Positions 883 to 23,082 of a stretch of DNA of 32,000 bases are shown piece after piece. The DNA is from Phycisphaera mikurensis NBRC 102666 (GTDB lineage: Bacteria; Planctomycetota; Phycisphaerae; Phycisphaerales; Phycisphaeraceae). The notes beneath the pieces are model-generated. The model had not been told where the DNA came from. It ran no database searches and was given only the letters and a program-made list of their open reading frames with translations. The position numbers and the translations under genes were made by a program. The DNA is taken from NCBI RefSeq assembly GCF_000284115.1, contig NC_017080.1:1500001-1532000 (forward strand), written 5' to 3'. How positions within the stretch are numbered: the first letter of the stretch is position 1; each line of letters begins with the position of its first letter.

Positions 883-956
<74 letters not shown>

Positions 957-2113: not shown

Positions 2114-2384
2114 CACCTCGTCCAGAATCGGCCGATGCCCGGATGCCACGCCGCTGGCGGGGTGGGGTGTCCGCAAACACGCGGCCGATCGGTGACTCCG
2201 CCGGCGTCGCCTCCGCGGAAGCGGTGCGGCACCGACGGTAGACAAGCCCCAAACTCTCGCCACCTCGTCCAGAATCGGCCGATGCCCGGATGCCACGCCG
2301 CTGGCGGGGTGGGGTGTCCGCAGGACACGCGGCCGATCGGCGACCCCGCCGGCTTCGCCCCCGCGAAAGCGGTGCGGCACCGAC
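2114..2384. repeat. Tandem direct repeat: two ~123-bp units about 147-148 bp apart, in the divergent intergenic region
   Basis: Unit 1 is 2114-2236 and unit 2 is 2261-2384. The first 62 nt are identical (cacctcgtccagaatcggccgatgcccggatgccacgccgctggcggggtggggtgtccgca). The rest is roughly 85-90% identical with a 1-nt indel. Each unit carries CCGGATGCCACGCC...GGGGTGG, related to the arm of the 30625 inverted repeat. Confidence 0.9.
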
Positions 2385-2425
2385 TGTCCCGAGCATCGGA
2401 TTCTTTCGAAGAGACGTGTCGAAGG

Positions 2426-4648
2426 TTGGAGGCTCAAGCCGCTGGACCCCGCGGGCGGCGGGGCTTTACCCTCGCCGGCTTGACGCGACGCCGGACCGCT
2501 GCGACGGGAGCCTTCGCGGCGGCCACGGGTTTGCTCCTCCTGGCCGCGGGCGCGGGCGGTACGCCCTCCGGCGCGGCCGGCGTGGGCGCGGCGGTCGGCT
2601 GGCTGGGCGTGCTCGAGGCGGTGCTGCGGTCCAGCGGGCTGCTGGCGGGTTTCTGGCTGTCGGCTTGGGGGTTGGGCGGCCTGCTCGGCCCCCGCGTCGG
2701 GACCGGGCAGCGGCTCGCGGTCGGCGCCGCGGCGCTCCTGCTCGCGGGCTGGCTCGCGGCGTGGCTTCTGGGTGTCTCGCGGGGCGTCGCGGTGGGGGTC
2801 GCGGCGCCCGGCTGGCTGCTGCTGATCCGCGAGGCGCGGCGTCGGCCGGTGCGGCGGGTCCGCGTGGCCCGGCGGCCGGGCTCCCTCGCCCCGCTGCTGC
2901 TCGCGCCCGGGCTCGCCTTGCTGCTGCTGGCGGCCTGCCTGCCGCCGGGCGCGGTCTGGGGCGTCGAGGCCTTCGGCTACGACGCGCTGTCGTACCACCT
3001 GCAGATCCCGCGGGAGTGGCTCGCGGCGGGGCGGATGGCCTTCCTCCCCCACAACGTCTACGCGTCGCTGCCGGGCCTGATGGAGGCGGCGTACGCGCTG
3101 GCGATGGCCGCGCTGGGCGTGGACCCCGCCGCCGGGCCGCTCGCGGCCGACCGGGCTGCGCTCGCCGCGGTGCCCTGCCAGCTGCTGCACGCCGGCTTCG
3201 CGGTCGTCGCGGCGCTGTGCATCCGCGAGGCCACCGACCGCCGCGGCGTCGCCGGCTGGGCGGCGGGGGGCGCCTTCCTCGCGTTGCCCTGGGTCGTCGT
3301 CACCGGCTCCTCGGCGTACAACGAGGCGGCGGCGATCGCTTTGGGCGCGGCGGCGTTGGGGCTGGTCGCCGCGGACGGCGGGCCGCGCGGCCCGGTTCCG
3401 CCGGCGGTCCGCGGCGCGCTGATCGGCCTCTTGCTCGGTGCGGCCTGCCTCGCCAAGCCGACCGCCGGGTTCATGCTCGCGCTGCCGCTGGGTGGCTGGA
3501 TGCTCGGCCGCGCGCTGCTGGATCCCCGCAACCGCGTCGGCTCGCCGTGCGTGCCGGGCTTGATCGCGAGGCGGCGGAGGTCCGCTGCGCTGCGCAGCGT
3601 CGCGGTGGCGACCGCCGTGGGCTCGGCGGTCCTGTCGCCGTGGCTCCTGCGGAACGCGCTGTGGACCGGCAACCCGGTCCACCCCTTCGCCACCTCCACC
3701 CTCGGCCTGGGCCACTGGACGCCCGAGCTCGCCGCCCGCTGGGCCGAAGCGCACGCACGCCCCGCCGGCGCGGGCCTCGGCGTGCTCTGGCGGCAGTGGC
3801 TGGGCAACCTCGGCTTCGCCGCCGTCGGCGGTACGCCCGTCGCGGCTTCGGTCACCGACGTCGCACGCTTCGGCCGCGAGGGCGGCTTCCCGATCCTCTG
3901 GCTGCTCGCCGCATTGGGCGCCGGCTTCGCGTTCTCCCGCCGCCGAACCCGCGGGCTGGCCGCGGGCCTCGTGGGCCTGCTCGCGTTCCAGCTCGCCGCT
4001 TGGTGGCTGCTCACCCACCACCAGAGCCGCTTCCTCGTCTTCACCGCGCTGCCGGGAGCGGTGGCGGTGGGCCTGCTCGTCGCCCGGCCCGCCCGCTCGT
4101 GTCGCCGCGGCCCCGGCGTCGCGCTCGCCGGGCTGCTCGCGGTGCTCGCCGTGGCGGTGCCCGCCGCCGCCGGCTTCGCCGTGCTCTGGGGCCAGACCCG
4201 CGCGTTCCTGGATCCGGCGACGGGCCGGCCGGTCCGCGCCGCGCCCTGGGAGCTGGTCGGCGCCCTCGCCGCCCCCGGCGTCGAGGGGCTCGACACGCAC
4301 CCGCTGGACGCGCTGCCGCCGGGGAGCCGCGTCCTCGTCGTCGCCGACAACGGCGGCCTCTTCTACGCCGACACGCCGATCGTCTACGCCAGCGCCTTCG
4401 ACGAGAACCCGCTCGCCCCGCTCATGGACCGGGCCGCGGGCGATCCGGCCCTCCTCGCCGCAGATCTCCGCGCCGCCGGCATCACGCACGTCTGGATCGG
4501 CTGGAGCGAGCTCGCCCGGTTGGGCGCCACCTACGGCGTCGACCCGCGGCTGGACCCGGCCGCCCTCGGACGCATCACCGGCGGCTGGCCCGGCGAACGC
4601 ACGCCGACCCGTGCGCTGCTCCGCGTGCCGCCCGCGACCACCCGCTGA
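2426..4648 (+). CDS. Polytopic membrane protein, candidate GT-C-type (ArnT/PMT_2-like) glycosyltransferase; start uncertain
   Basis: This is the only frame with membrane-protein-like translation across 2.4-4.6 kb. It has many hydrophobic segments and an FGYDALSYHLQIPREW loop. The first in-frame ATG (MAFLPHNV) would delete several TM segments, so TTG 2426 or a downstream GTG is assumed. Function rests on general resemblance only. Confidence 0.55.
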   Translation: MEAQAAGPRGRRGFTLAGLTRRRTAATGAFAAATGLLLLAAGAGGTPSGAAGVGAAVGWLGVLEAVLRSSGLLAGFWLSAWGLGGLLGPRVGTGQRLAVGAAALLLAGWLAAWLLGVSRGVAVGVAAPGWLLLIREARRRPVRRVRVARRPGSLAPLLLAPGLALLLLAACLPPGAVWGVEAFGYDALSYHLQIPREWLAAGRMAFLPHNVYASLPGLMEAAYALAMAALGVDPAAGPLAADRAALAAVPCQLLHAGFAVVAALCIREATDRRGVAGWAAGGAFLALPWVVVTGSSAYNEAAAIALGAAALGLVAADGGPRGPVPPAVRGALIGLLLGAACLAKPTAGFMLALPLGGWMLGRALLDPRNRVGSPCVPGLIARRRRSAALRSVAVATAVGSAVLSPWLLRNALWTGNPVHPFATSTLGLGHWTPELAARWAEAHARPAGAGLGVLWRQWLGNLGFAAVGGTPVAASVTDVARFGREGGFPILWLLAALGAGFAFSRRRTRGLAAGLVGLLAFQLAAWWLLTHHQSRFLVFTALPGAVAVGLLVARPARSCRRGPGVALAGLLAVLAVAVPAAAGFAVLWGQTRAFLDPATGRPVRAAPWELVGALAAPGVEGLDTHPLDALPPGSRVLVVADNGGLFYADTPIVYASAFDENPLAPLMDRAAGDPALLAADLRAAGITHVWIGWSELARLGATYGVDPRLDPAALGRITGGWPGERTPTRALLRVPPATTR
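3369..3414. repeat. 46-bp palindromic element, variant copy F, inside a CDS
   Basis: Left arm CCGCGGACGG (9/10) at 3369-3378, right arm CGGTCCGCGG exact at 3405-3414, interior 26 nt. It is read as xCC GCG GAC ... GTC CGC GGx and encodes AADGGPRGPVPPAVRGA in the membrane protein. Confidence 0.6.
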
Positions 4649-4701: not shown

Positions 4702-5229
4702 TCAGAAGGTGAAGCCGGCGAGGTCCAGCGGGGCGGTCGCGTCCCAACCCGACTCCCCGAGCGGGTGGACCATGAGGTGCTCCGCCTCCTCGCGGACGAT
4801 CTCGCCCGTCCGGACGCCGCGCATGTCGATCCGCGTGATCGGGTTCTTCACGGCGACGAAGCCGGCTCGCGCGTAGATGCTCTCGACGCCGAAGAGCAGC
4901 ACCGCGTCCACACCCGCCGCGCGTCCCTCCCGCAGCGCCGCCTCCACCAGCGCCACGCCGATGCCGCGTCGGCGGAAGGCCGGATCCACCGCGACCTCCG
5001 CGATGCCGAGCACGTCGAGCACGCGGTAACCCAGCCGGACCGCCCGGTGGCACACCGCGAGGTGGCCGGCGAGCGTGCCGCCGACGCGGACGAGAAAGCG
5101 GGCGTGGTGCCGGTTCTGGAAGAAGCTTCGCCCGCCGAAGTCGGTGGGGAAGACGCGGCCGATCAACTCGGCGATCTCGCGGTCGAGGGCGGGTGCGAGG
5201 CGCAGCTCTTCGTGGCGTTCGACGTTCAT
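4702..5229 (-). CDS. GNAT-family N-acetyltransferase
   Basis: ORF track 175 aa. It has the acetyl-CoA-binding motif RRRGIGVALVEAAL (R-x-x-G-x-G/A) preceded by beta-strand IAEVAVDPAF. The size is typical of GNAT proteins. Confidence 0.85.
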   Translation of the reverse strand: MNVERHEELRLAPALDREIAELIGRVFPTDFGGRSFFQNRHHARFLVRVGGTLAGHLAVCHRAVRLGYRVLDVLGIAEVAVDPAFRRRGIGVALVEAALREGRAAGVDAVLLFGVESIYARAGFVAVKNPITRIDMRGVRTGEIVREEAEHLMVHPLGESGWDATAPLDLAGFTF

Positions 5230-5234
5230 GGTCC

Positions 5235-5291
5235 GCGGAGCTCCGCCACCGCGTGCCGCGGCGGCACGCTTCCGAGAGAACCTTCTATAAC
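5235..5291. promoter_or_regulatory. Divergent control region: two perfect palindromes plus an AT-rich -10-like box
   Basis: The 71-bp gap between the GNAT ATG (5229, -) and the oxidoreductase ATG (5301, +) holds three elements. They are GCGGAGCTCCGC (5235-5246, 12-bp palindrome), CGTGCCGC-G-GCGGCACG (5252-5268, 8+1+8 palindrome) and TATAAC (5286-5291), only 9 nt before the ATG. Confidence 0.4.
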
Positions 5292-5300
5292 TTATCGCGC

Positions 5301-6323
5301 ATGGTCAACGTCGGCGTCATCGGGCTCGGCAGCATGGGCAACACCCACCTGGCCGCCTACGGCAGCGTGCCGGGCTGCAGGGTCGTCGCGGTGGCCGACG
5401 CCGACGAGGGCCGCCGCACCGGCCGCACCGGGGCCGGCGGGAACATCGAGGGACAGGGCTCCGGCGGCGGCTTCGACTTCGCCAGCGTGAGGGCCTACGC
5501 CGACGCTTCGGAGCTGATCGCCGATCCCGAGGTCCACCTCGTCGACGTGTGCCTGCCCACGCCCCTGCACGCCCGCTTCGCCGTGGCCGCGCTCCGAGCC
5601 GGCAAGCACCTGATGGTCGAGAAGCCGCTCGCCCGGACCGCGGCCGAGGCGGACACCATCGTCGCCGCCGCGGAGGAGGCGTCCGCCGGCGGGCAGATCG
5701 CGATGTGCGGGATGTGCATGCGCTTCTGGCCGGGCTGGGTGTGGCTCAAGGAGGCGATCGACGACGGCCGTTTCGGGAGGGTGCTCCACGCCCGGTTCCG
5801 CCGCGTGACCTCGCACCCGCCGGGCTCCTTCTACGCCGACGGCGACGCCTGCGGCGGGGCGCTGCTGGACCTTCACGTCCACGACACCGACTTCGTGCGG
5901 CACGCCTTCGGCGCCCCCGAGGCCGTGTTCAGCCGCGGCTACGCGAAGCACACGTCGCGCCCGGACCACGTCTGCACGCAGTATCTCTTCGGGGACGGCG
6001 GCCCGGTGGTGACCGCCGAGGGCGGCTGGGCGATGCACGAGGGCTTCGGCTTCGAGATGCAGTACGCGGTGAATTTCGAGCGGGCCACGGCCGTCTTTGA
6101 CATCCACCAGGACCCGGTGCTCACGCTGATCGACGGCGAGGGCAAGCGGGCCGTCGACATCCCCGGCGGCATGGGCTACCAGCCCGAGCTCGCCTACCTC
6201 ATCGGCTGCGTGGAGCGGGGCGAAGCGCCTTCGACTGTCACGCTGGCGGACGCGGCGAACGCGCTGCGGATCGTCGAGGCCGAGGGCCGGAGCATCGCCA
6301 GCGGCCGGATCGAGGCGCTCTGA
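5301..6323 (+). CDS. Gfo/Idh/MocA-family NAD(P)-dependent oxidoreductase
   Basis: ORF 5193..6323 trimmed to ATG 5301 (MVNVGVIGLGSMGNTHL, a Rossmann GxGxxG). The EKPLA motif is followed by the typical C-terminal alpha/beta domain. Confidence 0.88.
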   Translation: MVNVGVIGLGSMGNTHLAAYGSVPGCRVVAVADADEGRRTGRTGAGGNIEGQGSGGGFDFASVRAYADASELIADPEVHLVDVCLPTPLHARFAVAALRAGKHLMVEKPLARTAAEADTIVAAAEEASAGGQIAMCGMCMRFWPGWVWLKEAIDDGRFGRVLHARFRRVTSHPPGSFYADGDACGGALLDLHVHDTDFVRHAFGAPEAVFSRGYAKHTSRPDHVCTQYLFGDGGPVVTAEGGWAMHEGFGFEMQYAVNFERATAVFDIHQDPVLTLIDGEGKRAVDIPGGMGYQPELAYLIGCVERGEAPSTVTLADAANALRIVEAEGRSIASGRIEAL

Positions 6324-6523: not shown

Positions 6524-8452
6524 ATGAGCACCACCACCCACCCCGTCGCCGCCACCGAACGCATCCCGGTGGAGATCCATCCGTCCTCCGCGGAGGCTTC
6601 CGCCGCGGTGGCCGCCGAGATCGCGCAGCTGATCCGCACCAAGCGGGCGGCGGGGGGCAACGCGGTGCTCGGCCTGGCCACCGGCTCGACGCCCACCGGC
6701 GTCTACGACGAGCTCATCCGGCTGCACCGCGAGGAAGGCCTCTCCTTCAAGGGCGTCAAGACCTTCAACCTCGACGAGTACGTGCCGATGGCGCCCGACG
6801 CGCTGCAGAGCTACCGGCGCTTCATGGACGAGCACCTCTTCGACCACGTCGACTTCGACGAGGGCGACACCCATGTCCCCGACGGCCTGCTCCCGGTGGA
6901 GGACACCGCGGCCGGCTGCGCCCGCTACGAGGAGCAGATCCAGGAGGCCGGCGGGCTCGATCTCCAGCTGCTGGGCATCGGCCGCACCGGGCACATCGGC
7001 TTCAACGAGCCCGGCTCGGGCAAGGACTCGCGGACGCGGCTGATCTGGCTCGACCGGCTGACCCGCGCCGACGCCGCGAGCGACTTCTTCGGCGCCGAGA
7101 ACGTCCCGCGCCGGGCGATCACGATGGGCGTGGGGACGATCATGGAGGCGAAGCGGATCGTCCTCATGGCCTGGGGCGAGGGGAAGGCGCCGGTGGTGGC
7201 GGCGGCGGTGGAGGGGCCGGAAACGCCCGCGGTCGCGGCGAGCTACCTGCAGACCCACCCCAACGCCACCTTCGTGCTCGACGAGGCGGCCTCGGCGGGG
7301 CTGACGCGGACGCGGTGCCCCTGGCTGGTGGGGAGCGTGGACTGGACGCCCCGGCGGCAGCGGTCCGCGGCGGTCTGGCTGGCCCAGCGTGCGGGCAAGC
7401 CGCTCCTGAAGCTCACCGACGAGGACTACAACGAGAGCGGGCTCCAGGAGCTCGTCGCCGAGCACGGCCCGGCGTACGACGTGAACCTGCGGGTGTTCCG
7501 GGAGCTGCAGCGGACGATCACCGGCTGGCCCGGCGGCAAGCCCAGCGAGCGGCGGCGGGCGGGGGACGTCCAGCGCGAGGGCGACGACGTGTTCCCCAAG
7601 CGGATCCTGATCTTCTCGCCGCACCCCGACGACGACGTGATCTCGATGGGCGGCACGCTGATCCGCCTGGTCGATCAGGGCCACGAGGTCCACGTGGCGT
7701 ACCAGGTCTCGGGCAACATCGCCGTCTTCGACGCCGACGCCGTCCGCTTCGCGGACTTCTACAGCGAGCTCGCCGGCACGCGGGGCTCCAGCCAGGAGGG
7801 CGTGCTGAAGGAGGTCGTCGACGAGGTCGACGCGAAGGAGCCCGGCGCCGTCGACGGCGAGCTGCTCAAGAGCATCAAGCAGATCATCCGCCGCGGCGAG
7901 TGCCGCGCGGCCGCGCGGCTGTGCGGGCTGCCCACCGACCGGCTGCACTTCCTCGACCTGCCCTTCTACGAGACCGGCAAGGTTCGCAAGAAGCCGCTCT
8001 CGCGGGAGGACGTCGACCTCACCGCGGCGTTGCTCGAGCGGATCAAGCCGCACCAGGTCTACGCCGCCGGCGACCTCTCCGACCCGCACGGCACGCACCG
8101 CGTGTGCCTCGCGGCGGTCATGCAGGCGTGCGAGCGGCTGAAGGACGAGGACTGGTTCGAGCAGACCGCGGTCTGGCTCTACCGCGGCGCCTGGCAGGAG
8201 TGGCTGCCCGAGCAGGTGGACATGGCGGTGCCGCTCTCGCCCGCGGAGCTGCTCAAGAAGCGTCAGGCGATCTTCAAGCACGAGAGCCAGAAGGACCGGG
8301 CGCCGTACCCCGGGACCGACGAGCGGGAGTTCTGGGAGCGTGCCGAGGAGCGCAACCGCAACACCGCCCGGCTGTACGACCGGCTGGGCCTGGCGGAGTA
8401 CGAGGCGATCGAAGCCTTCGTGCAGTGGAGCCCGGGGCAGGAGATCGGCTGA
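6524..8452 (+). CDS. nagB: Bifunctional-type glucosamine-6-phosphate deaminase (NagB) fused to an LmbE/PIG-L-family deacetylase domain
   Basis: The N-terminal ~260 aa carry NagB motifs (LGLATGSTP, FNLDEY, LGIGRTGHIGFNEPGS). The C-terminal ~270 aa carry LmbE/PIG-L motifs (ILIFSPHPDDDVISMGGT, DPHGTH). This long NagB form is known in Bacteroidota and Planctomycetota. Confidence 0.9.
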   Translation: MSTTTHPVAATERIPVEIHPSSAEASAAVAAEIAQLIRTKRAAGGNAVLGLATGSTPTGVYDELIRLHREEGLSFKGVKTFNLDEYVPMAPDALQSYRRFMDEHLFDHVDFDEGDTHVPDGLLPVEDTAAGCARYEEQIQEAGGLDLQLLGIGRTGHIGFNEPGSGKDSRTRLIWLDRLTRADAASDFFGAENVPRRAITMGVGTIMEAKRIVLMAWGEGKAPVVAAAVEGPETPAVAASYLQTHPNATFVLDEAASAGLTRTRCPWLVGSVDWTPRRQRSAAVWLAQRAGKPLLKLTDEDYNESGLQELVAEHGPAYDVNLRVFRELQRTITGWPGGKPSERRRAGDVQREGDDVFPKRILIFSPHPDDDVISMGGTLIRLVDQGHEVHVAYQVSGNIAVFDADAVRFADFYSELAGTRGSSQEGVLKEVVDEVDAKEPGAVDGELLKSIKQIIRRGECRAAARLCGLPTDRLHFLDLPFYETGKVRKKPLSREDVDLTAALLERIKPHQVYAAGDLSDPHGTHRVCLAAVMQACERLKDEDWFEQTAVWLYRGAWQEWLPEQVDMAVPLSPAELLKKRQAIFKHESQKDRAPYPGTDEREFWERAEERNRNTARLYDRLGLAEYEAIEAFVQWSPGQEIG

Positions 8453-8458
8453 CCGAAG

Positions 8459-8504
8459 CCGCGGACCGTCGGCGGTTTCAGCGCGAAACCTCCACGGTCC
8501 GCGG
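8459..8504. repeat. 46-bp palindromic element, copy A; likely nagB terminator hairpin
   Basis: The arms are exact and extend to 11 bp (CCGCGGACCGT / ACGGTCCGCGG). The interior has its own stem GGTTTC-agcgc-GAAACC. It starts 6 nt after the nagB stop codon. Confidence 0.85.
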
Positions 8505-8560
8505 TCTCCAGCCGAAGCCCGCCGGGGCGGCGCGAGCGCAACTCGCGAACCCGAGGAGGC

Positions 8561-10549
8561 TCAGCGCAGCGGATCCAGCGGCCGCAGCGTTGCTTCGAGG
8601 CGGAGCGTGCCGTCGGGGGCGGCGGAAGTGGTCCAGCGGAGTCGGGTGACGCCGGGCAGCGGGGGGCCGAGCAGGCCGGCGGGCGGGGCGGCCGGCTCGG
8701 CGTGCCAGCGGCCCGCCCGGCTGGAGGTCATCTCGACGCGGAGCATCTTCCCGTCGCGGCGGAGCGTGGCGCTGTCGCCATCGACCTCCACGGCGGCCTC
8801 GGTCATGAGCGTCCAGGCGACGGGCTCCTCGCGGGCGGCGGGGGCGAGGCCGGTGAGCTCGTCGGTGACGGTCACGCCGCGGTCGGGTCCGGGATCGAAC
8901 ACGAAGCGGCGGGTGGCGGTGGCGACCGACGCGCCGAGCGGCGCGGCGAGATCGAGGGCGGCAACGCCCGGGAGGTTCTCGCCGGGCGGAGCCAGCGGCT
9001 CGACGGCGATCAGCGGAGCGAAGCCGTCCACGCGGTGGAGCGCTCCGCCGATCGTCAGCGTGTTGTGCGCCTCGTTGCGGTGGTGGTAGACCCGCCAGCG
9101 GTCGCTGCCCTGGGCCCGGTCCCAAAGGTCGATCCCCTGGCTCTCGATGCTCTCGTAGTCCACCTTCCCCGGGTCCATCGCCCAGCGGACCCCGTCGGCG
9201 TCGAGCACGAAGGAGCCGGCGTCGAGGTGGCCGTGGCTGACCGAGCCGCGGCCGCCCTTGATGGCGAGGTACATCGCACCGGGGTCGCTCCATCGCTCGC
9301 GGAAGAAGGCCACCGGGTTGGGGCCGCCGCCGGACCAGCTCCGGGGCGCGTCCTCGCCGAGGGCCGTCGGGTCCAGCCGCAACCACCACAGCGGCGTGAA
9401 GACCCGGAAGCGTCCGTCGGCGGCGGTGGCTTCCTCCCAGCCGCCCGCCCGCCAGGCCGCGAGCCACCCGGGGGCGTTTGCTTCTTCCGCCACCCAGAGG
9501 AAGGCGGGGGTGAAGCTCACGCGCTCGCGGGAATCCGAGAAGTTGAAGGATCGGCCGGTGGGGCCGCGGGCGTGGGCCATGAACCCGCCGCTGGCGAGGA
9601 AGCCCGGCTCCTGCGCGAGGCCGAGATCGGTCCCCAGCGCCGTCCGCAATGCATCGAGCAGGAGGCACTGGTACGTGGTTCCATAGCTCCAGTAGGCCGG
9701 CCCCTCGGGGTGGACGCCGTCGGGAGCCATCGCCTGCAGGGCCCGGGGGTTGTGCTCCCGCACCGCGGCCAGCAGCTCGGCGAGGGCTGCGGGGTCGTCC
9801 TCGGCGATGGCCAGCGCCGCGAGGGTCAGGCCGCCGAAGCCCACGGGGTTCCAGTTGTGGGTGGCGAGCTGCCAGTGCCAGCCGTGCCGGCTGGCGGTCC
9901 GCTGGCGGAGCGCCTTGGTCTGCAACGCTCCGCGGAGGGCGACGCGGGTGTCGTCGGACAATGTGTCGAAGAGCCAGTCGTAGCCGAGGCCCACGGCGGC
10001 GGCCATCTCGGCGGTGTCCAGGAAGTGCGTGGGGTTCCAGTCGGTGAAGCCGGCGACGGCCAGCAGCTCCTCCTCGGCGCGGCGGGCGAAGCGGCCGTCG
10101 CCGGTGGTGTGGAAGGCCAGGGCACAGGCGGTGATCCGCTCCAGCGCCTCCCGGGAGACGCGCAGCAGCCGCCTCCCGACCTGCTCCCGCTGGAGGGTGG
10201 GCTGGTCGAGGCAGGCGCGGGCGCGGGCCTCCACGTTCCGCAGCAGCGCGTCCAGCACCGCGTCGCCGGCGCGCTGCGCCCGCAGGGCCGCGAGACGCTC
10301 GGGGGTGGCGATGACCCGCGGGTGACCGGCGCGAACCTCCGGCATCGACGCCAGCGGCGGGGACGGCGGCGGCGGGCCGGGGGCGGCGGGGTCCGCGGAG
10401 GTGGGCATGGCCGGAGCAGCGAGGGTCAGGCAGAGAGTGGCGGCCACGCGCAGTCGACCGCGGCGGCGAGGAGTCAGCGCTCCCCGGGCGGCGGGCCGCG
10501 GGCCACGAGCGGGCGCCCGGTGTCGGCGGCAAGAGGCCGATTGGCGCAT
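8561..10549 (-). CDS. Heparinase II/III-family protein (polysaccharide lyase-like), secreted
   Basis: ORF track 662 aa. Motifs THNWNPVGFGGL, HPEGPAYWSYGT, SHGHLDAGSFVLDADGVRWAMDPG and HNTLTIGG are typical of the heparinase II/III / DUF4962 architecture. The Arg-rich N-terminus (PRRRGRLRVAATLCL) may be a Tat-type signal. Confidence 0.82.
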   Translation of the reverse strand: MRQSASCRRHRAPARGPRPAARGALTPRRRGRLRVAATLCLTLAAPAMPTSADPAAPGPPPPSPPLASMPEVRAGHPRVIATPERLAALRAQRAGDAVLDALLRNVEARARACLDQPTLQREQVGRRLLRVSREALERITACALAFHTTGDGRFARRAEEELLAVAGFTDWNPTHFLDTAEMAAAVGLGYDWLFDTLSDDTRVALRGALQTKALRQRTASRHGWHWQLATHNWNPVGFGGLTLAALAIAEDDPAALAELLAAVREHNPRALQAMAPDGVHPEGPAYWSYGTTYQCLLLDALRTALGTDLGLAQEPGFLASGGFMAHARGPTGRSFNFSDSRERVSFTPAFLWVAEEANAPGWLAAWRAGGWEEATAADGRFRVFTPLWWLRLDPTALGEDAPRSWSGGGPNPVAFFRERWSDPGAMYLAIKGGRGSVSHGHLDAGSFVLDADGVRWAMDPGKVDYESIESQGIDLWDRAQGSDRWRVYHHRNEAHNTLTIGGALHRVDGFAPLIAVEPLAPPGENLPGVAALDLAAPLGASVATATRRFVFDPGPDRGVTVTDELTGLAPAAREEPVAWTLMTEAAVEVDGDSATLRRDGKMLRVEMTSSRAGRWHAEPAAPPAGLLGPPLPGVTRLRWTTSAAPDGTLRLEATLRPLDPLR

Positions 10550-10684
10550 CCGCCGAGGTTAGCGGGCTTCCCCACCGAGCCGGCCCGGCCGCGCCCGCTG
10601 CGTGCGTTGAAGCGCTCGACGGAGCCGCCGAGCGAGAACCCGCCGGGAACCGAAGAAAGCGACGCGGCTCCCTGCGGCGCCGAA

Positions 10685-11004
10685 GCACGCACCGGGCCTG
10701 CCTCGCGGCGGTCTGCCAAGCCTGCGAGCGGCTGAGGGGCGAGGACGGGTTCGAGCAGACCGGGGTCTGGCTGTACCGCGGTGCCGCTCTCGCCCGCGGA
10801 GCTGCTCAGGAAGCGTCAGGCGATCTTCAAGCACGAGAGCCAGAAGGACCGGCCCCGTACCCCGGGACCGACGAGCGGGCGTTCTGGGAGCGTGCCGAGG
10901 AGCGGAACCGCAACACCGCCCGGCTCTACGACCGCCTCGGCCTCGCCGAGTACGAAGCCATCGAAGCCTTCGTGCGGTGGGCCCCCGGCGAAGAGGTCGG
11001 CTGG
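10685..11004 (+). pseudogene. Decayed duplicate of the nagB-LmbE 3' end (corresponds to 8091-8452)
   Basis: Hand alignment gives roughly 85-90% identity to 8091-8452. A 41-nt block (8188-8228) is missing, there is a 1-nt deletion near gaccgg|ccccgtacc, and the stop TGA has become TGG. ORF 10781..11206 begins MPLSPAELLRKRQAIFKHESQKDR, copying the nagB C-terminus, then frameshifts. Confidence 0.85.
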
Positions 11005-11010
11005 CCGAAG

Positions 11011-11056
11011 CCGCGGACCGCCGGCCGTTCGGGCCCCACAGGCCCGCGGTCCGCGG
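11011..11056. repeat. 46-bp palindromic element, copy B
   Basis: Both arms are exact and the interior is 26 nt with an inner stem GGGCC-ccaca-GGCCC. It sits at the end of the nagB pseudogene fragment, 152 nt upstream of the GHL10 start. Homology between the two nagB 3' copies ends just inside this element, a few nt beyond its left arm. Confidence 0.85.
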
Positions 11057-11207
11057 ATCCACGCACGAGGCGCCGCGTCGGGTTCCCCAACCGGAGTTGC
11101 CGTCCGCCGCCGCGGACCGCATCCCCCTTGCGGCCGCCCGGCGGACCCCCGTCGATGCCGGCCGCGGGAAGACCGCGATCCGCCGGCACCGCCCGGCGGT
11201 CGCTAGG

Positions 11208-12506
11208 ATGGCGAGTCTTATGCAAGACCTCCCGCTCTGCGGCTTCCTCCTCGCCTGCCTCACGCTTGGGATCGGCTCCGCCGCGGCGGCGCCCGCCGGC
11301 TCGTCCGCCGACAACCCGGCGCTGGCCGTGCGGTCGGCGGAGACCCGCCAAGACCGGGGCACGGAGGCCCCCGAGGAGTTCCGCGCCGCCTGGGTCGCGA
11401 CGGTGGCGAACATCGACTGGCCTTCCAAGCCCGGCCTCGCCACGCGGCGTCAGAAGGAGGAGCTGCTCGACCTCCTCGATGACGCCCAGGAGATCGGCCT
11501 CAACGCGCTCATCTTCCAGATCCGCCCGCACGCCGATGCGCTCTACCCCAGCGAGCTGGAGCCGTGGTCGCCGTACCTCTCGGGCACGATGGGCGAGGCG
11601 CCGCGGCCGGCGTGGGACCCGCTCGCTCTCGCGATCGAGGAGGCGCACGCCCGCGGCATCGAGCTGCACGTCTGGCTGAACCCGTACCGGGCCGGGCACC
11701 CCGACTACGAGGGCGGCTACCCCGAGAACCACGTCAGCAAGACGATGCCCGATGCGGTGCACAAGCTCGGCGACTCGGGCATGTGGTGGATCGACCCCTC
11801 CCACCCCGGGGCGAAGGCCCACACGCTCGCGGTGATCGAGGACGTGCTGACCCGCTACGACGTCGACGGGCTGCACCTCGACGACTACTTCTACCCCTAT
11901 CCCTCCTACCTGAAGGGCTTCCCGGGCGGGCAGTTCCCCGACGAGAAGAACCACGCCGCGTACCGCAAGCGCGGCGGCGAGCTCTCGCGGGACGACTGGC
12001 GGCGCGACCAGGTGAACACGCTGGTCCGCGAGATCTCCGAGCTCGTCGGGCGCGTGAAGCCCGACGCCCGCTTCGGCATCAGCCCCTTCGGGCTGCCCCG
12101 CGAGGGGAGCGTCCCGTTCATCCGAGGCTTCGACCAGTACGAGAAGCTCTACGCCGACGTGGCGCTGTGGCTCCGCGAGGGCTGGGTCGACTACCTCGCC
12201 CCGCAGCTGTACTGGCCGATCGAGAAGCCCGAGCAGTCGTTCACCGAGCTGCTCCGCTGGTGGCACGCGAACAACCCCAAGGGCAAGGACGTCTACGCCG
12301 GGCTCTACACCTCGCGCCTGCTCGGCGACGAACCGGGCTACCGCGACACCGAGATCCCGCTGCAGGTTCGCTGGAGCCGGCTGCTGACACCCGAGGGCCT
12401 CCAGCCCGGCCACATCCACTTCTCGATGACCGCGCTGCAGCAGAACCCCCGCGGGTTGGTCGAGAAGCTCCGGCCGCTGTACGACGAGCCTGCGCGGAAG
12501 GATTGA
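11208..12506 (+). CDS. Glycoside hydrolase-like family 10 (GHL10/DUF187, YngK-like) protein, secreted
   Basis: ORF 10977..12506 trimmed to ATG 11208 (MASLMQDLPLCGFLLACLTLGIGSAAAAP, a signal peptide); an alternative ATG is at 11220. Motifs AAWVATVANIDWPS, LNALIFQIRPHADALYPS, HVWLNPYR and DGLHLDDYFYP. Confidence 0.85.
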   Translation: MASLMQDLPLCGFLLACLTLGIGSAAAAPAGSSADNPALAVRSAETRQDRGTEAPEEFRAAWVATVANIDWPSKPGLATRRQKEELLDLLDDAQEIGLNALIFQIRPHADALYPSELEPWSPYLSGTMGEAPRPAWDPLALAIEEAHARGIELHVWLNPYRAGHPDYEGGYPENHVSKTMPDAVHKLGDSGMWWIDPSHPGAKAHTLAVIEDVLTRYDVDGLHLDDYFYPYPSYLKGFPGGQFPDEKNHAAYRKRGGELSRDDWRRDQVNTLVREISELVGRVKPDARFGISPFGLPREGSVPFIRGFDQYEKLYADVALWLREGWVDYLAPQLYWPIEKPEQSFTELLRWWHANNPKGKDVYAGLYTSRLLGDEPGYRDTEIPLQVRWSRLLTPEGLQPGHIHFSMTALQQNPRGLVEKLRPLYDEPARKD

Positions 12507-12508
12507 CG

Positions 12509-13204
12509 ATGCCCGACGCCCCCGCCCGCTGGTTGCTCCCGGCGCTCCTGCTCGTCGCCCCCGCCGTGCTCGCCGAGCCGGCGCCCGCGCCGTCGATCGT
12601 GATGCGGGAACGGTGGGGCGGCGAGGAGGTCGAGTACCCCGAGGCGCTCCGTCACGAGCCGGCCACGGTGCTGCTCCACCACGCGGGCGTGGCGTGGAGA
12701 GCGGGCGCCGACCCCGCCGCCTCAATGCGGGGCCTCCTCCGCTTCAGCCGCGAGGAGAAGGGCTGGCCGGACGTGCCGTACCACTTCGTGGTCGCGCCCG
12801 ATGGCCGGATCTTCGAGGGGCGGGATCTGCGGTACGCCCCGGACACGAACACGAGCTTCGACCCGACCGGGTACGTGAACGTGGAGCTGCTCGGCAACTT
12901 CGAGGAGCAACGCGTGAACGCGACGCAGCTCGACGCCGCGGTCCGCGTGGTCGCCTGGCTGGCCGACCGGCTGGAGATGCCGACCGCCGACCTCGCCACC
13001 CACGCCGGCGTCGCCCCCGGGCAGACCTCCTGCCCGGGCGCCGACTTCCTGCGCTACCTCGACGGCGGGAGCTTCCACGCCGCCGTCGACGCCGCCCGGG
13101 CGGGCGAGCCGGTGGAGATCGAGGTGCTCCCGCCGCTGCCGGACGGGCCGCAGGCCTTCGCGGAGGCGGAGGAACCGGCGGTTCCGAAGCGCAGCGCGAA
13201 TTGA
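12509..13204 (+). CDS. N-acetylmuramoyl-L-alanine amidase (Amidase_2 / PGRP-AmpD fold), secreted
   Basis: The ATG at 12509 lies 2 nt after the GHL10 stop. It has a signal peptide (WLLPALLLVAPAVLA) and motifs VLLHHAG, VPYHFVVAPDGRIFEGR, GYVNVELLGNF and QTSCPG. Confidence 0.85.
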   Translation: MPDAPARWLLPALLLVAPAVLAEPAPAPSIVMRERWGGEEVEYPEALRHEPATVLLHHAGVAWRAGADPAASMRGLLRFSREEKGWPDVPYHFVVAPDGRIFEGRDLRYAPDTNTSFDPTGYVNVELLGNFEEQRVNATQLDAAVRVVAWLADRLEMPTADLATHAGVAPGQTSCPGADFLRYLDGGSFHAAVDAARAGEPVEIEVLPPLPDGPQAFAEAEEPAVPKRSAN

Positions 13205-13279
13205 CGCTTGCCGTCGCCCGGGTCGCTCGCGACTGCTGCGCCGCTTGGCCCGCGGCGGCCTTCAGCCTGCGCGAAGCCT

Positions 13280-14074
13280 TCAGCCCGCGCGGCGGCGGCC
13301 CAGGAGGCCGAATCCGGCGAGGCCGAGGGCCAGGAGGCCGACGGGCTCGGGCACGACGTTGACCAGCGGGCCGGTGTTGTCGGCGACGACGTAAGCGAGG
13401 TTGAAGTCGCTGGTGGAGCCATCCTCGGCCCCGAGGTCGTAGAAGACGATCGAGTCGATGGTGTACGTGGTGCCGTCCAGCTCGCCGTTGCTCGCGCCGA
13501 ACAGCGGGTTCCACTGCGCGGCGTCGGCGAGGCTCCACTGGTAGAGGTGGTACTCGCCGTCGGCGATGACGTCCTGCGCCACGCTGCCCTCGGTGCCGCC
13601 GGAGCCGCCGGTCTCGTCGAGCGCGATGCGCACGCTCAGGTCCGGGGACGTCGTCTGCAGGTAGAAGCCCACGGAGCCCACGCCGCCCGCCGCGGAGACC
13701 AGGTTCGCCGCGGACGGGGCGCCGCCGTTGGCGATGTGGCGGAGCGTCCAGGCGGTGGGGACGCCGTAGTTCAGGCCGCCGCCAAAGAGGTTGTCGTCGG
13801 TGATCGACAGATTGTTCACGTAGGAGGTGCCGCCGCCGGGCGTGAAGTCCCACGGCGTCGAGCTGATCGCGGTGGTGCCGGAGACGGCGCCGCCGTTGGA
13901 GCCCGATCCCGCCGGGCCGACGCCGCTGCGGAAGATCCCGAAGCTTGGATCCACCACCTGGGTGGTCGGGTTGAACTCGGCGAAGTCCTCGATGACCACC
14001 GGGGCCGCGGTGGCCGGTGCGGCCGCGAGTGCTGCGGGCGTGGCGACACAGAAAGCGAAGCGAAAGAGAGACAT
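13280..14074 (-). CDS. PEP-CTERM sorting-domain surface protein (PC1)
   Basis: It has an N-terminal signal peptide and the C-terminal sequence VPEPVGLLALGLAGFGLLGRRRAG (PEP motif, TM helix, Arg cluster). A strong SD (GAGGAGG, complement of 14082-14088) lies 7 nt upstream of the ATG. The ~120 aa before the anchor resemble the C-terminal module of the 15262 protein. Confidence 0.85.
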   Translation of the reverse strand: MSLFRFAFCVATPAALAAAPATAAPVVIEDFAEFNPTTQVVDPSFGIFRSGVGPAGSGSNGGAVSGTTAISSTPWDFTPGGGTSYVNNLSITDDNLFGGGLNYGVPTAWTLRHIANGGAPSAANLVSAAGGVGSVGFYLQTTSPDLSVRIALDETGGSGGTEGSVAQDVIADGEYHLYQWSLADAAQWNPLFGASNGELDGTTYTIDSIVFYDLGAEDGSTSDFNLAYVVADNTGPLVNVVPEPVGLLALGLAGFGLLGRRRAG

Positions 14075-14151
14075 CCGAAAACCTCCTCGTGGGGGAGGAG
14101 CCGCAACCCGGCTCCCTGGAGTTCGCCGGCAGCGTGCGCGGCGGTGCCAAA

Positions 14152-14180
14152 ATGGTACTAGAAGATCGGGATCGGATCAA
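14152..14180 (-). promoter_or_regulatory. Candidate sigma70-type promoter for the PC1 gene
   Basis: On the minus strand the AT-rich island reads TTGATC (14180-14175), a 17-nt spacer, then TACCAT (14157-14152), about 75 nt upstream of ATG 14074. The spacer contains GATCGG-GATCGG-ATC. Confidence 0.35.
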
Positions 14181-14254
14181 GAACCTCCGTGAGCGACCCG
14201 TAAATAGGACGCGCCGCGGCCGCTCCCGTCGCATTATTGCCTGCGAAGAAGGCA

Positions 14255-14292
14255 GGGCTTGCGACGGGCTTGCGGATCTTATAGCATCATCG
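14255..14292 (+). promoter_or_regulatory. Candidate promoter/operator of the pseudopilin-SpoIID operon
   Basis: A direct repeat GGGCTTGCG occurs twice (14255-14263, 14266-14274; 11-bp period). It is followed by the AT-rich 16-mer TCTTATAGCATCATCG (14277-14292), which contains the -10-like TATAGC, 30 nt before ATG 14322. The 16-mer recurs on the other strand at 19982-19997 (15/16). Confidence 0.5.
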
Positions 14293-14321
14293 CGGTCGCC
14301 CCCCTCTCATCCCCCATCGTC

Positions 14322-15152
14322 ATGAAGCCAGCCACGCCCCTCCGCTCCGCCCCGATGGGCTTCACGCTCATCGAACTCCTCGTGGTGATCTCGATCATCG
14401 CGCTGCTCATCGGGATCCTGCTGCCGGCGCTCGGGGCGGCGCGGAGCAGCGCGAGGGACATGCAGTGCCTCAGCAACACGCGGCAGGTCGCCATCGCGGC
14501 CACCGCCTACGCCACCGACAACAAGGACTACAGCGTCCGCGCGACTTCGAACGGCGCCTTCACCGCGGACAACATCACCGAGTACTGGTCCGGCAAGCTG
14601 GTGATCGGTGAGTACGGCGCGACCGTCGAGATGTACCAGTGTCCGGTCTTCGAGCCGGACCCCAGCTTCACGTTCGACCCCTACGACGGGTCGGCGCTGG
14701 GGGCGATGCTGGCCAACCCCGGCCACATCAACTGGCGGATGATCGACTACGGCACCAATTGGTACACGGTCTCGGGTCGACGGAGCTACGCGCGCCCCGG
14801 GGAGACGGGCCAGCAGGCCGCCGCCCGCAGCATCCAGACCTACAACCTCGCCGACGCGAGCAACACGATTTTCGTGGCGGATTCCTGGTACGAGGCCTTC
14901 GCCGGCGCAGCCAACCAGCGCGGGATCTACGTGATCGGCGGCATCCCCACCAACGGTGGCGGCGTGCACGCGCGGCACGGGAACCAGACGATCAACATCG
15001 GGTACATGGACGGCCACGCCTCCGCCTTCGGCGTCGAGGACATCCGCTTCAACCAGCCCGGCGGTCCTTGGGACCCCGACAACCTCGGAGCCCTCTACAT
15101 CCCCGCGACGAGCGCCGCGACCACGCCCCAGAACCAGTGGGACGAGGAATAG
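14322..15152 (+). CDS. Prepilin-type N-terminal cleavage/methylation-domain protein (planctomycete DUF1559-like pseudopilin), copy 1
   Basis: ORF 14259..15152 trimmed to ATG 14322. The N-terminus is [31 protein letters not shown]-terminal [18 protein letters not shown] segment matches the H-x9-DG-type motif. Confidence 0.9.
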
Positions 15153-15162
15153 GCGGATGCTC

Positions 15163-15208
15163 CCGCGGACCATGATGCGCGGGCGGCCCCGAGCCGCACG
15201 ATCCGCGG
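15163..15208. repeat. 46-bp palindromic element, degenerate copy J
   Basis: Arms CCGCGGACCA (15163-15172) and CGATCCGCGG (15199-15208) each match 9/10, and the interior is exactly 26 nt. It is intercistronic, between stop 15152 and start 15262. Confidence 0.5.
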
Positions 15209-15261
15209 CTGCAAGGCCTTTCCGCCGCCGCGGTTGAACCCCAGCCCCCACACACCCGACC

Positions 15262-16731: not shown

Positions 16732-16845
16732 ACCCCGGCGGGACCCCACGCGGACGTGGATGCCGGGCCATCGCCCGCTCCTCCGCGCGACCCGGGCGGT
16801 GGCACCCGGCTCGGAAAGCTTCCCTCCTCCCGCGCACGCACGCGC

Positions 16846-19910: not shown

Positions 19911-19964
19911 GCAACTCCCTGAAAGCTAAAACGTCTGGAGGAGGAGGGGAGATCCCCGATGTCG

Positions 19965-19997
19965 GTGGCCGCGGCCACGCTCGATGATACTATAAGA
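19965..19997 (-). promoter_or_regulatory. Candidate promoter/operator of the GHL10-MurQ-like operon
   Basis: The minus strand reads TCTTATAGTATCATCG (19997-19982, containing TATAGT). Downstream lies the perfect 14-bp palindrome GTGGCCGCGGCCAC (19965-19978). The element ends 71 nt upstream of ATG 19910 (gap 19911-19981). Confidence 0.5.
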
Positions 19998-20000
19998 CTC

Positions 20001-21176: not shown

Positions 21177-21196
21177 TCGGCCCGCACACCGGCGGC

Positions 21197-22087
21197 ATGC
21201 GCCTGGGCGTGCTCGGCGTCGACAGCTCGCACCTTCCCGAGTTCACGCGTCGCATCGCGGGCTTGAACGAGGCCGGGGCCACCCGCTGCCGCGTGGTGTC
21301 GATGTTCGACGCGGGCGACCACCAGCTGCCCGCGGCGGACGTCGCCGGCTGGGTGGCCGAAGCGAAGGCCATGGGCGTGCAGGAGCGTGGCTCGGTCGAG
21401 GAGCTGCTCGGCGGCGTCGACGGCGTGCTGGTGCTCGCCGTCGCCGGCGGCCGCCACCTGGAGCTGGCGGAGCCGGCGCTGCAGCGTGGCTTGCCGACCT
21501 ACGTCGACAAGCCGCTGGCCTGCACCGCCGCGGACGCCCGGCGGCTCGCCGCCCTCGCGGAGGAGCACGCCGCCCCGTGCTACTCCGCCTCGAGCCTCCG
21601 CTTCGCGGCCGAGCCGGTCGCCGCCGCGGCGGACGCGTCGCTGGGCGACATCGTCGCCGTCGACGCCTTCGGGCCCGGCGAGCTGCTCGACGCGAACCCC
21701 GGCGTGCTGCACTACGGCGTGCACGCGGTGGAGATGGTCGACGCGGTGCTGGGCCCCGGCGTCGCGGAGGTCGCGGCGGAGTCGACCGCGGACCGCGACC
21801 TGGTCCGCCTCCGGTACGCCGACGGCCGGGCCGCCACGCTCCGGCTGGAGCGCAGGGGCAGCTACGACTTCGGCGCCGCCGTTCACGGCACCGCGGGAGC
21901 GTCCTTCTTCAAGGTCGACTTCGCCACCGTGTACGACCGCCTCGTGGAAGCGATGGTCGGCTTCTTCCGGGGCGGCCAGGCCCCGGTCCCGCTGTCGCGC
22001 ATCGTCGAGAACGTCGCCGTGATGGAAGCCGCGAACCGCTCGCGGGAGACCGGCGGCGGGTGGGTGAAGCCGGACGGCGCGCCGTGA
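21197..22087 (+). CDS. Gfo/Idh/MocA-like oxidoreductase, variant N-terminal motif (GVLGVDSSH)
   Basis: ORF 20972..22087 trimmed to ATG 21197 (MRLGVLGVDSSHLPEF). It has a VDKPLA motif. It belongs to the G-x-D-x-S-H subgroup I recall from Planctomycetota and Verrucomicrobiota. Confidence 0.72.
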   Translation: MRLGVLGVDSSHLPEFTRRIAGLNEAGATRCRVVSMFDAGDHQLPAADVAGWVAEAKAMGVQERGSVEELLGGVDGVLVLAVAGGRHLELAEPALQRGLPTYVDKPLACTAADARRLAALAEEHAAPCYSASSLRFAAEPVAAAADASLGDIVAVDAFGPGELLDANPGVLHYGVHAVEMVDAVLGPGVAEVAAESTADRDLVRLRYADGRAATLRLERRGSYDFGAAVHGTAGASFFKVDFATVYDRLVEAMVGFFRGGQAPVPLSRIVENVAVMEAANRSRETGGGWVKPDGAP

Positions 22088-23052: not shown

Positions 23053-23082
23053 GGAAAGCCCCGGAGGGGGAGCCGTCTTATG

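Follow-up and report, generated by a model that had tools for sequence, protein, structure and literature searches.

A truncated nagB relic beside a PL35-type lyase gene in Phycisphaera mikurensis: a possible case of 3'-end displacement

Displaced and duplicated 3' ends at other bacterial genes

At Rhs, CDI and T6SS effector loci, displacement of gene 3' ends has been proposed to proceed via homology-facilitated illegitimate recombination (Kirchberger et al. 2017, PMC5361080), a study that cites Jackson et al. 2009 (PMC2935791) for C-terminal displacement of the Rhs/CDI type. The gene icd and its partial copy icdC, located at the cryptic e14 prophage in E. coli K-12, are described in PMC13626634, which cites Hill et al.

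Here we describe a related arrangement in a 32-kb stretch of the Phycisphaera mikurensis NBRC 102666 genome (the window). As at Rhs/T6SS loci, an intact gene is followed by a same-orientation, 5'-truncated orphan 3' fragment, the repeat begins within the gene's conserved portion, a newly linked gene, missing at this site in relatives, lies downstream of the new 3' end, and one apparently homologous and one non-homologous junction occur without an integrase. The orphan also appears to have once been part of a functional gene, as in Rhs/T6SS displacement (omega 0.12 in its last 32 codons). Unlike the Rhs/T6SS toxins, however, nagB is a housekeeping amino-sugar enzyme to which the selection logic of toxin diversification does not extend. 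Furthermore, the two 3' ends share about 90% identity instead of encoding different toxin domains, and the cargo is an opposite-strand lyase gene rather than an immunity gene, with a single relic and no array. We regard this likeness as an analogy of mechanism only. In common with icd/icdC, the 3' end of a metabolic gene is duplicated as a direct repeat at both ends of an insert and the copies differ mostly at synonymous sites. In contrast to e14, a prophage of 15 kb that brings its own system of site-specific recombination, the insert described here measures 2.2 kb and carries one lyase gene and no recombinase; its repeat shows mosaic divergence, a pattern not predicted by site-specific integration.

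An intact nagB, a lyase gene and a broken nagB 3' end

The live gene (nagB-LmbE, 6524..8452, plus strand) encodes an intact 642-aa fusion protein with predicted glucosamine-6-phosphate deaminase and PIG-L/LmbE deacetylase domains (Pfam Glucosamine_iso and PIG-L), and is matched by solved NagB structures. Its GC3 is 0.97-0.98, and homologs in relatives share 86-91% amino acid (aa) identity. Among the matches listed for the contig of the source genome, it is the only close fusion-type nagB, and a further complete copy is therefore not indicated. A 522-aa protein ending at the repeat start (P0010) was discarded as a late start-codon or frameshift call, its DNA being full-length.

Positions 8091-8504 and 10685-11056 form a direct repeat, identified by repeat search, gapped pairwise alignment and blastn (E=1.8e-110), and no third copy was found in the window by blastn. 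Copy 1 (8091..8504, plus strand) comprises the final 120 nagB codons, followed by the stop codon and, after 6 nt, by a palindrome, REP_A. Identity between the copies is 89.9-91.3% across 317-345 aligned columns, or 79% with gaps counted. The second copy, psi-nagB (hereafter psi; 10685..11004, plus strand), matches codons 523-642 of nagB and thus begins at codon 523 of 642, without the 5' part. Relative to copy 1, psi has lost 41 nt between 10777 and 10778 through a slippage deletion; the missing block corresponds to either 8184-8224 or 8188-8228, as its placement is ambiguous because of flanking 8-bp near-repeats (GCGGCGCC and GCGGTGCC). A further 1-nt deletion lies at about 8298 (copy 1 numbering), which brings the loss to 42 nt, so that only the 73 nt between the deletions are out of frame. 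Two tight -1/+1 pairs in the alignment, at 8120/10716 and 8429/10990, might be no more than substitutions that lie close together. The nagB stop codon TGA (8450-8452) reads TGG in psi (11002-11004), substitutions in psi are biased from AT to GC, and coding GC3 periodicity is absent across 10685-11004. Specific homology stops at the palindromes (8459-8504 and 11011-11056), and none was detected between copy 1 and psi beyond the right palindrome arm. An identical repeat-lyase arrangement was found in a locus of assembly GCA_014207395.1 (L081). Taken together, these features support the view of psi as a dead, 5'-truncated relic of the nagB 3' end. The sequence-only reading of this DNA had already claimed a second copy of the nagB-LmbE 3' end, broken by the 41-nt loss, the 1-nt deletion and the TGA to TGG change; the pairwise alignment it suggested and the blastn search bear this out, and extend the repeat to 8504/11056.

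The two copies flank, as had also been correctly recognized, an oppositely oriented gene (8561..10549, minus strand; Pfam Hepar_II_III_C) encoding a putative PL35-type (heparinase II/III-like) glycosaminoglycan lyase homolog. Its longest ORF spans 662 aa with a signal-like N-terminus, and the NCBI start at 10408 yields 615 aa. The protein keeps the family-invariant residues and matches PDB entries 8khv (E=3.6e-114, residues 26-597), 8khw (E=9e-101) and 9o3q, a 'PL35 chondroitinase' (E=2e-64); the PL35 glycosaminoglycan lyase family is described in PMC12088678 and PMC11262172. The lyase ORF is the sole gene of the 2.2-kb insert (8505-10684), which further consists of a 56-nt and a 135-nt spacer. 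The longer spacer (10550..10684), upstream of the lyase ORF, matches neither nagB nor any fetched locus, and its right end is a non-homologous (illegitimate) junction with psi. No integrase or recombinase was identified in the insert, in which Pfam yields lyase domains only, and no plasmid or phage match beyond short coding similarity was obtained. Rfam and tRNA searches at the junctions gave no match, and no tRNA lies nearby. The earlier claim that the lyase was acquired as foreign DNA finds no support: plasmid and phage links are missing, composition, GC3 and codon usage of the lyase block are typical for the source genome, and the closest homolog of the lyase (P0135) is encoded in a related organism at an unrelated locus and groups with it in the tree. 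A scan of JGI metagenomes with the lyase protein recovered no relatives. The window gene at 2135-4648, considered as kin of the BNR protein adjoining P0135, proved unrelated.

REP elements are repetitive extragenic palindromes, and REP-associated rearrangements are known. REP_A (8459..8504; 46 bp, CCGCGGACCG-N26-CGGTCCGCGG) lies between the convergent nagB and lyase genes and, on either strand, folds into a near-perfect hairpin (z -4.8 and -6.2). Its counterpart REP_B (11011..11056), attached to psi and located 164 nt upstream of the GHL10 gene, has intact arms, a degraded inner stem and a weaker fold (z -2.0 and -2.4). The arms of the two are identical and their 26-nt interiors 54% alike, which is not above unrelated family members and agrees with the earlier observation that homology ends at palindromes with differing interiors. 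At least seven clean copies are present in the 32 kb (825, 8459, 11011, 15163, 17363, 22117 and 25333; the hairpin at 25333 has z -4.3, that at 22117 is weaker), and dozens occur in the relatives' loci. The arm motif (at most one mismatch) was observed 50 times versus 31 +/- 5 expected, a count reached by 0 of 100 shuffles. The palindromes measure 46-54 bp, have conserved arms and are mainly extragenic, directly 3' of stop codons; Rfam returned no match for them. They constitute a dispersed, REP-like, Phycisphaera-specific sequence family. Like REP elements, they are short palindromes with many dispersed copies, mostly post-stop, and stable hairpins; unlike known REP elements, they have a Phycisphaera-specific sequence and one copy lies in frame within a conserved protein-coding gene, and the likeness is one of general description. 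Palindromes also occur at the edges of synteny blocks in several relatives and at another rearrangement edge, that of a SpoIID move. In copy 1, psi and a relative's locus (L082) the palindrome begins 6 nt past the stop and therefore belongs to the nagB 3' repeat unit; past the palindrome, homology to the L082 flank was not above shuffled controls. Of the earlier proposal that the palindrome marked or mediated the junction, the first part is too narrow, as the family is dispersed and marks more than these junctions, and mediation is conceivable.

The interval in relatives and the mosaic divergence of the copies

The GHL10 gene (11220..12506, plus strand; Pfam) opens a conserved GHL10-Amidase_2...SIS-GHL10-GFO block and shares 89% aa identity with its homolog on contig L088, which keeps this block downstream. 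The locus of the closest relative, species X, consists of L088 and a second k=141 contig of the same sample, L091, joined by an exact and unique 141-nt overlap, and has the order GFO-nagB-258 nt-SSF-palindrome-GHL10-Amidase_2.... Neither the lyase gene nor psi is present at this nagB-GHL10 position, and the window yielded no remnant of an SSF gene. The prediction that nagB would be followed directly by GHL10 thus holds insofar as the two are neighbours in the closest relative, but one SSF gene separates them; since this relative does not have a bare nagB-palindrome-GHL10 order, the assumed ancestral state is itself a reconstruction. L082 has neither lyase nor SSF at the nagB-adjacent position, and L083 encodes a nagB-adjacent lyase of a different subfamily on the opposite strand (46-49% identical, on another tree branch). 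With lyase and psi missing in species X and a different lyase in L083, the block is lineage-specific. Among the relatives, nagB occurs in at least two contexts, GFO-nagB (L083, L084 and L091) and GH20/SSF...nagB-palindrome (L082), and two fusion-type nagB genes at one locus were seen in no relative. No candidate donor, with the order nagB-palindrome-lyase(-), was detected. The only match to a psi/L082-type 29-mer in JGI metagenomes was a distant nagB (48% aa), and GTDB species representatives were too distant for comparison (best 68% aa). Similarity by tblastx at contig ends was rejected as high-GC noise.

The divergence analysis covers about 320 aligned nt and reveals a mosaic with a breakpoint at 8374-8383 (permutation P=0.015-0.02). 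Segment A, the first ~285 nt (10685..10927 of psi, plus strand, matching 8091 to ~8375), has a dS of 0.14 and an omega of 0.46 and is the closest pair in the entire data set; segment B, the last ~75 nt (10928..11004, plus strand, matching ~8375-8452; 32 codons), has a dS of 0.62 and an omega of 0.12. The third-position difference is 10% left of the breakpoint, under every ortholog pair (16-26%), and 33-38% right of it, with no such step in orthologs. All four psi-private changes in segment B are at third positions, compared with 4 of 9 in segment A. Segment A thus looks like a recent copy in neutral decay, and the coding-type divergence observed in segment B points to old divergence under purifying selection. 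Across the whole repeat, omega is 0.17-0.23 versus about 0.5-0.6 expected for a duplicate dead from birth, a test whose P value (0.004-0.065) depends on the alignment; codon-position counts alone (3:7:16) do not separate the models. As the 3' part of psi differs mostly by synonymous changes, psi was at one time part of a functional nagB, and the mosaic calls either for an additional event, namely gene conversion, or for a crossover within the repeat. The sequence-only reading had not anticipated this mosaic.

Only 2 sites carry a shared-derived state uniting copy 1 and psi against four relatives. Five-lineage trees recover (copy 1, psi) with 60% and (copy 1, L083) with 25% bootstrap support, and segment B of copy 1 leans to L083 (38% bootstrap, 88.7% identity); whole-repeat quartets and NJ bootstraps did not settle the position of psi among the lineages. 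The C-terminal state 'VQW vs VRW' was rejected as a psi/copy 1 synapomorphy; it is homoplastic, because third positions pair L091 (VQW) most closely with L084 (VRW). In the live nagB, a max-chi2 breakpoint scan gave a best permutation P of 0.065 (versus L083, at 7834) and no signal against the remaining relatives, and a private-change test on its 3' end was not significant, with L091 dropping likewise. With the trees inconclusive as well, the claim that the live 3' end was imported and psi is the original is not sustained.

Origin of the relic and its significance

We tentatively propose, with somewhat less than even confidence, that psi represents the 3' end displaced from a once-working nagB, stranded without the action of an integrase. 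An ancestor of the Phycisphaera lineage would have had nagB with its terminal palindrome adjoining the GHL10 block. A segment with a nagB 3' end, a palindrome and a convergent PL35-type lyase gene would then have integrated, joined by homology within nagB on one side and non-homologously at the equivalent of codon 522/523 (10684|10685) on the other. One nagB would have been kept complete and the lyase gained, and the other 3' end would have been left between lyase and GHL10 without promoter or 5' part, where it would have decayed through the 41-nt slippage deletion, the 1-nt deletion, stop loss and AT-to-GC-biased substitutions. The mosaic could reflect a homologous crossover inside the repeat near 8375, in which case resident DNA would have been genuinely duplicated across 8091-8375; alternatively, the initial ~285 nt of psi could have been replaced later, through gene conversion by the live gene. 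The structure, the lack of the block in relatives, the mosaic and the coding-type divergence of the final ~75 nt are direct observations, and what we infer is the use of homology on one side only, the sequence of the steps and the identity of the resident copy. Displacement is supported by one complete and one 5'-truncated repeat copy flanking a single cargo gene. It is weakened by the extra step or unusual crossover geometry that the mosaic demands, by the lack of a significant breakpoint in the live nagB and the unsettled placement of psi, and by a lyase block of typical composition with neither mobile-element signature nor donor. Hence, of the original suggestion that the block was acquired by recombination in nagB, the relic and the lineage-specific position of the lyase stand, and the direction of import and the foreignness find no support in the tests.

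An ancestor with two tandemly oriented genes (nagB1-palindrome-lyase(-)-...-nagB2-palindrome-GHL10), in which a deletion from upstream of the lyase to codon 522 of nagB2 removed the 5' 1.57 kb and gene conversion from nagB1 finally renewed the relic's initial ~285 nt, would account equally well for the non-homologous junction at the left end of psi and for the coding-type divergence seen in segment B. That relatives have nagB in two or more genomic contexts fits this history, which we nevertheless consider unlikely, as it needs duplication or acquisition, then deletion, then conversion, while no relative has two fusion-type nagB genes at one locus and only one close fusion-type nagB is among the matches listed on the source genome's contig; on its own, it also leaves the presence of the lyase here versus its absence in species X unexplained. 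Similarly improbable is that the lyase moved within the genome, through a replication-based or illegitimate event in which the 3' end of the resident nagB was duplicated along with the palindrome, and that psi was dead from the start. About 80% of the repeat, segment A, does act as a born-dead recent duplicate (dS 0.14, omega 0.46), (copy 1, psi) is the best-supported pairing (60%), and the lyase is native-like in composition with its nearest homolog at another locus of a related organism. The last ~75 nt would then require later excess divergence, for instance by replacement of the live extreme 3' end with a relative's allele, which is in line with the leaning of copy 1 to L083 in segment B (38% bootstrap; 88.7% identity). 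However, segment B (dS 0.62, omega 0.12) has psi-private changes that are all of synonymous type and therefore place extra divergence on the psi lineage while it was coding, not only on copy 1, and copy 1 and psi are united by only the 2 shared-derived sites.

The architecture also equals that of icd/icdC, where the live gene runs into the insert and a C-terminal pseudogene lies on the far side (PMC13626634), and over the 73 nt from 8225 to 8297 the copies reach 99% identity. Both points would favour a site-specific integrative element that brought a replacement 3' end to nagB and later lost everything but the lyase gene. We consider this very improbable, given a 2.2-kb insert with the lyase only, no integrase or recombinase, no phage or plasmid similarity and no nearby tRNA, and a Campbell-type integration that predicts uniform divergence instead of a mosaic.

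It is doubtful that the palindromes act as portable recombination joints rather than as passive terminators. If they did, single-gene cassettes would be swapped between nagB and the GHL10 block without an integrase (the PL35 lyase here, an SSF transporter in species X and another lyase in L083), and psi would be the footprint of such an exchange.

Whatever its exact course, an old rearrangement of the DNA has left in psi a scar of an ordinary type, like those known at other bacterial genes. The locus provides a clean, datable footprint of the placement of a single catabolic gene beside an amino-sugar pathway gene without mobile-element machinery, in a phylum that is little studied. Although 3'-end displacement is mainly familiar from toxin loci and from the attachment sites of prophages, its relics can be left at ordinary metabolic genes too. 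In addition, psi constitutes a small neutral marker whose AT-to-GC bias bears on the upkeep of a 74% GC genome. Current understanding is unchanged by this locus, which adds a well-documented example and no new principle.

Organization of the nagB neighbourhood

The window has a GC content of 74%, and its coding frames were called by third-position GC and Pfam. The nagB neighbourhood is a cluster for amino-sugar and cell-wall salvage. A GFO/IDH/MocA oxidoreductase gene (5193-6323, plus strand) precedes a nagB-LmbE fusion gene (6524-8452, plus strand) with Glucosamine_iso and PIG-L domains, which is followed by a 46-bp palindrome (REP_A, 8459-8504), a Hepar_II_III_C gene (8561-10549, minus strand; hereafter the lyase gene), a 135-nt spacer, a second copy of the nagB 3' end (psi, 10685-11004), a further palindrome (REP_B, 11011-11056) and a GHL10 gene (11220-12506, plus strand). 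Genes for Amidase_2, SpoIID, a MurQ-like SIS protein, a second GHL10, further GFO proteins and NAGPA lie 3' of GHL10, and DUF1559/N_methyl proteins, a kind typical of Planctomycetota, also occur in this neighbourhood. With three GFO-type oxidoreductases, two GHL10 genes, a beta-lactamase-like gene and a GntR/PBP regulator, the large cluster at 11220-25235 looks like a planctomycete peptidoglycan/amino-sugar recycling locus.

The duplicated nagB 3' end described in the sequence-only reading is real (blastn E=1.8e-110 between copy 1, 8091-8504, and 10685-11056), with 90-91% identity over aligned columns only and no third copy detected by blastn in the window. The 1-nt deletion and the TGA to TGG stop loss in psi were likewise as that reading had stated. 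The 41-nt gap of psi is flanked by the near-repeats GCGGCGCC and GCGGTGCC, and this deletion is thus attributed to slippage. The same locus was found in assembly GCA_014207395.1. Substitutions private to psi, a small sample, are GC-biased (AT-to-GC at 6/95 AT sites vs GC-to-AT at 3/222 GC sites; Fisher P=0.023). The GC content expected at equilibrium from these rates is ~0.82, and 10/20 of the psi-private changes are G-to-C or C-to-G swaps.

Divergence of the two nagB 3' ends

Over the whole repeat, copy 1 and psi differ with a dS of 0.26-0.28, a dN of 0.044-0.065 and an omega of 0.17-0.23 (NG86). For a fragment that was truncated and hence dead from birth, a pairwise omega near 0.5-0.6 is expected, which was rejected at P=0.004-0.065, the range being set by the scoring of indel-adjacent mismatches. 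A max-chi-square scan placed a breakpoint at 8374-8383 (permutation P=0.015-0.02). To its left, third positions differ by 10%, with a dS of 0.14, an omega of 0.46 and 2/3/4 psi-private changes at codon positions 1/2/3; to its right, the corresponding values are 33-38%, 0.62, 0.12 and 0/0/4. The left-hand difference is below that of every ortholog pair over the same columns (16-26%), and ortholog pairs have no comparable step between the two segments. This contrast indicates different histories for the first ~285 nt and the last ~75 nt of psi. Judged from these substitution patterns, the last ~75 nt derive from a nagB kept functional over a long independent history, as probably does the adjoining palindrome. 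The first ~285 nt split from the live gene very recently, and their decay from then on has been neutral.

None of three comparisons singled out either copy as native. The live nagB shows only a weak breakpoint at 7834 against its 91% identical relative (P=0.065), lineage-private changes are scarcer in its 3' end (1.1 against 2.8 per 100 nt), a drop also seen in the 90% relative L091, and bootstrap trees on 317 shared columns gave no resolved placement.

Relatives and the palindrome family

The best nagB match among GTDB species representatives reaches only 68% amino acid identity; closer relatives (91, 90, 87 and 86%) came from the protein collection. Their loci read GFO-nagB-lyase'(+)-Rieske (L083, 91%), unknown-GFO-nagB up to the contig end (L084, 87%) and nagB-palindrome in a different context (L082, 86%). 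In L082, nagB (9652-11621) falls into two tblastn pieces split at ~10042 by a frameshift or long-read indel error, which accounts for a 522-aa gene call. In L091 (90%), GFO-nagB is followed by a contig end 181 nt further; L088, from the same sample (GHL10 89%), reads SSF-palindrome-GHL10-Amidase_2...SIS-GHL10-GFO. Since both are k=141 contigs and the end of L091 is identical to the start of L088 over exactly 141 nt, unique within each contig, joining the two gives GFO-nagB-258 nt-SSF-palindrome-GHL10... as the most likely order in the closest relative (species X). The blocks linked by psi in the window would thus be neighbours in species X as well, with a transporter gene (SSF) where the window has REP_A, the lyase gene and psi; no trace of SSF was found in the window. 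The nagB-SSF spacer of species X (L091 2388-2568 / L088 1-218) carries its own direct repeat with ~117-nt spacing and another palindrome type, GCTGCACCGCAACGCGGTGCTGC, which probably caused the assembly break. The window and species X differ by a second rearrangement as well (13280-16731 vs L088 4342-7845), in which SpoIID was inverted and moved across an unknown gene and a DUF1559 gene; a palindrome copy adjoins SpoIID in both genomes.

The palindrome, CCGCGGACCG-N26-CGGTCCGCGG (extended consensus GAAnCC...GGATTC), is predicted by folding to form a strong hairpin and belongs to a dispersed, REP-like family with no Rfam match. Besides REP_A and REP_B, copies lie at 825-870, 15163-15208, 17363-17408, 22117-22162 and 25333-25378, with weaker ones at 3369, 25816 and 29637, and the element is frequent in all close relatives' loci, mostly directly 3' of stop codons. 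A tRNA-Pro gene (TGG; 883-956, minus strand) directly adjoins the first copy. The copy at 17363-17408 lies in frame within a minus-strand gene (16846-18450) for a conserved SIS/MurQ-like protein of 535 aa, at codon 347, and occupies the same codon in L088 (8483-8528), with arms conserved in nucleotides, a different interior and conserved protein on both sides. In copy 1, psi and L082 the palindrome starts 6 nt past the nagB stop, and this constant offset makes it part of the nagB 3' unit and of the duplicated DNA; no homology between the copies extends beyond its right arm. Loci L088, L089 and L090 each have one palindrome 80-173 nt upstream of GHL10 with a different upstream gene every time, so that the elements coincide with synteny-block edges, which fits a role in rearrangement, short of proof.

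The lyase gene and the origin of psi

The lyase gene encodes a PL35-family homolog (8khv, E=3.6e-114; further match 9o3q, 'PL35 chondroitinase'). PL35 enzymes are glycosaminoglycan lyases of broad spectrum (PMC12088678, PMC11262172), whose amino-sugar products plausibly feed a deacetylase/deaminase like nagB-LmbE, a link we infer. The top database relatives of the window lyase share only 55-57% identity with it. The nagB-adjacent lyase of L083 (46-49% identity) lies on the opposite strand and on another tree branch, while the window lyase clusters with P0135, a homolog at an unrelated locus of the L082 organism; two subfamily members were thus placed beside nagB independently. PL35-type lyases of two subfamilies adjoin nagB-LmbE in two related genomes (window 8561-10549; L083 3661-5652), and a Botrimarina homolog (P0133) forms a fusion with an M14 carboxypeptidase that carries the annotation murein peptide amidase A, which hints that the family may be functionally tied to amino-sugar or cell-wall salvage.

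The sequence-only reading took the repeat as the trace of a block carrying a nagB 3' end and the lyase gene, acquired by recombination within nagB, with the original end left to decay; its observation stands, and this interpretation is partly supported. The mosaic of psi could reflect a homologous crossover near 8375, whereby 8091-8375 would be duplicated resident DNA and all that lies between 8375 and the far end of the lyase gene would have come in from outside, or post-event gene conversion that would have replaced the first ~285 nt of psi. There are three rival explanations. A deletion may have truncated a second nagB paralog, or part of nagB may have been duplicated in situ, with the extreme 3' end of the gene later undergoing allelic replacement; the least likely of the three is an integrative element that has been stripped down. 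GC3 and codon usage of the lyase block are ordinary, and no plasmid, phage, tRNA or recombinase link was found for it.

At this locus, a cargo gene lies between a complete gene and a directly oriented, 5'-truncated orphan 3' end, and one junction is homologous, the other non-homologous. In these four features the locus matches the 3'-end displacement via homology-facilitated illegitimate recombination that has been put forward for T6SS effector loci and Rhs loci (PMC5361080), and it resembles icd/icdC at prophage e14 (PMC13626634), but it belongs to neither system: a recombinase is absent, as is any toxin/immunity logic. Lying beside a lineage-specific lyase gene, psi is the scar of a rearrangement and a fresh example of an already known type of event.
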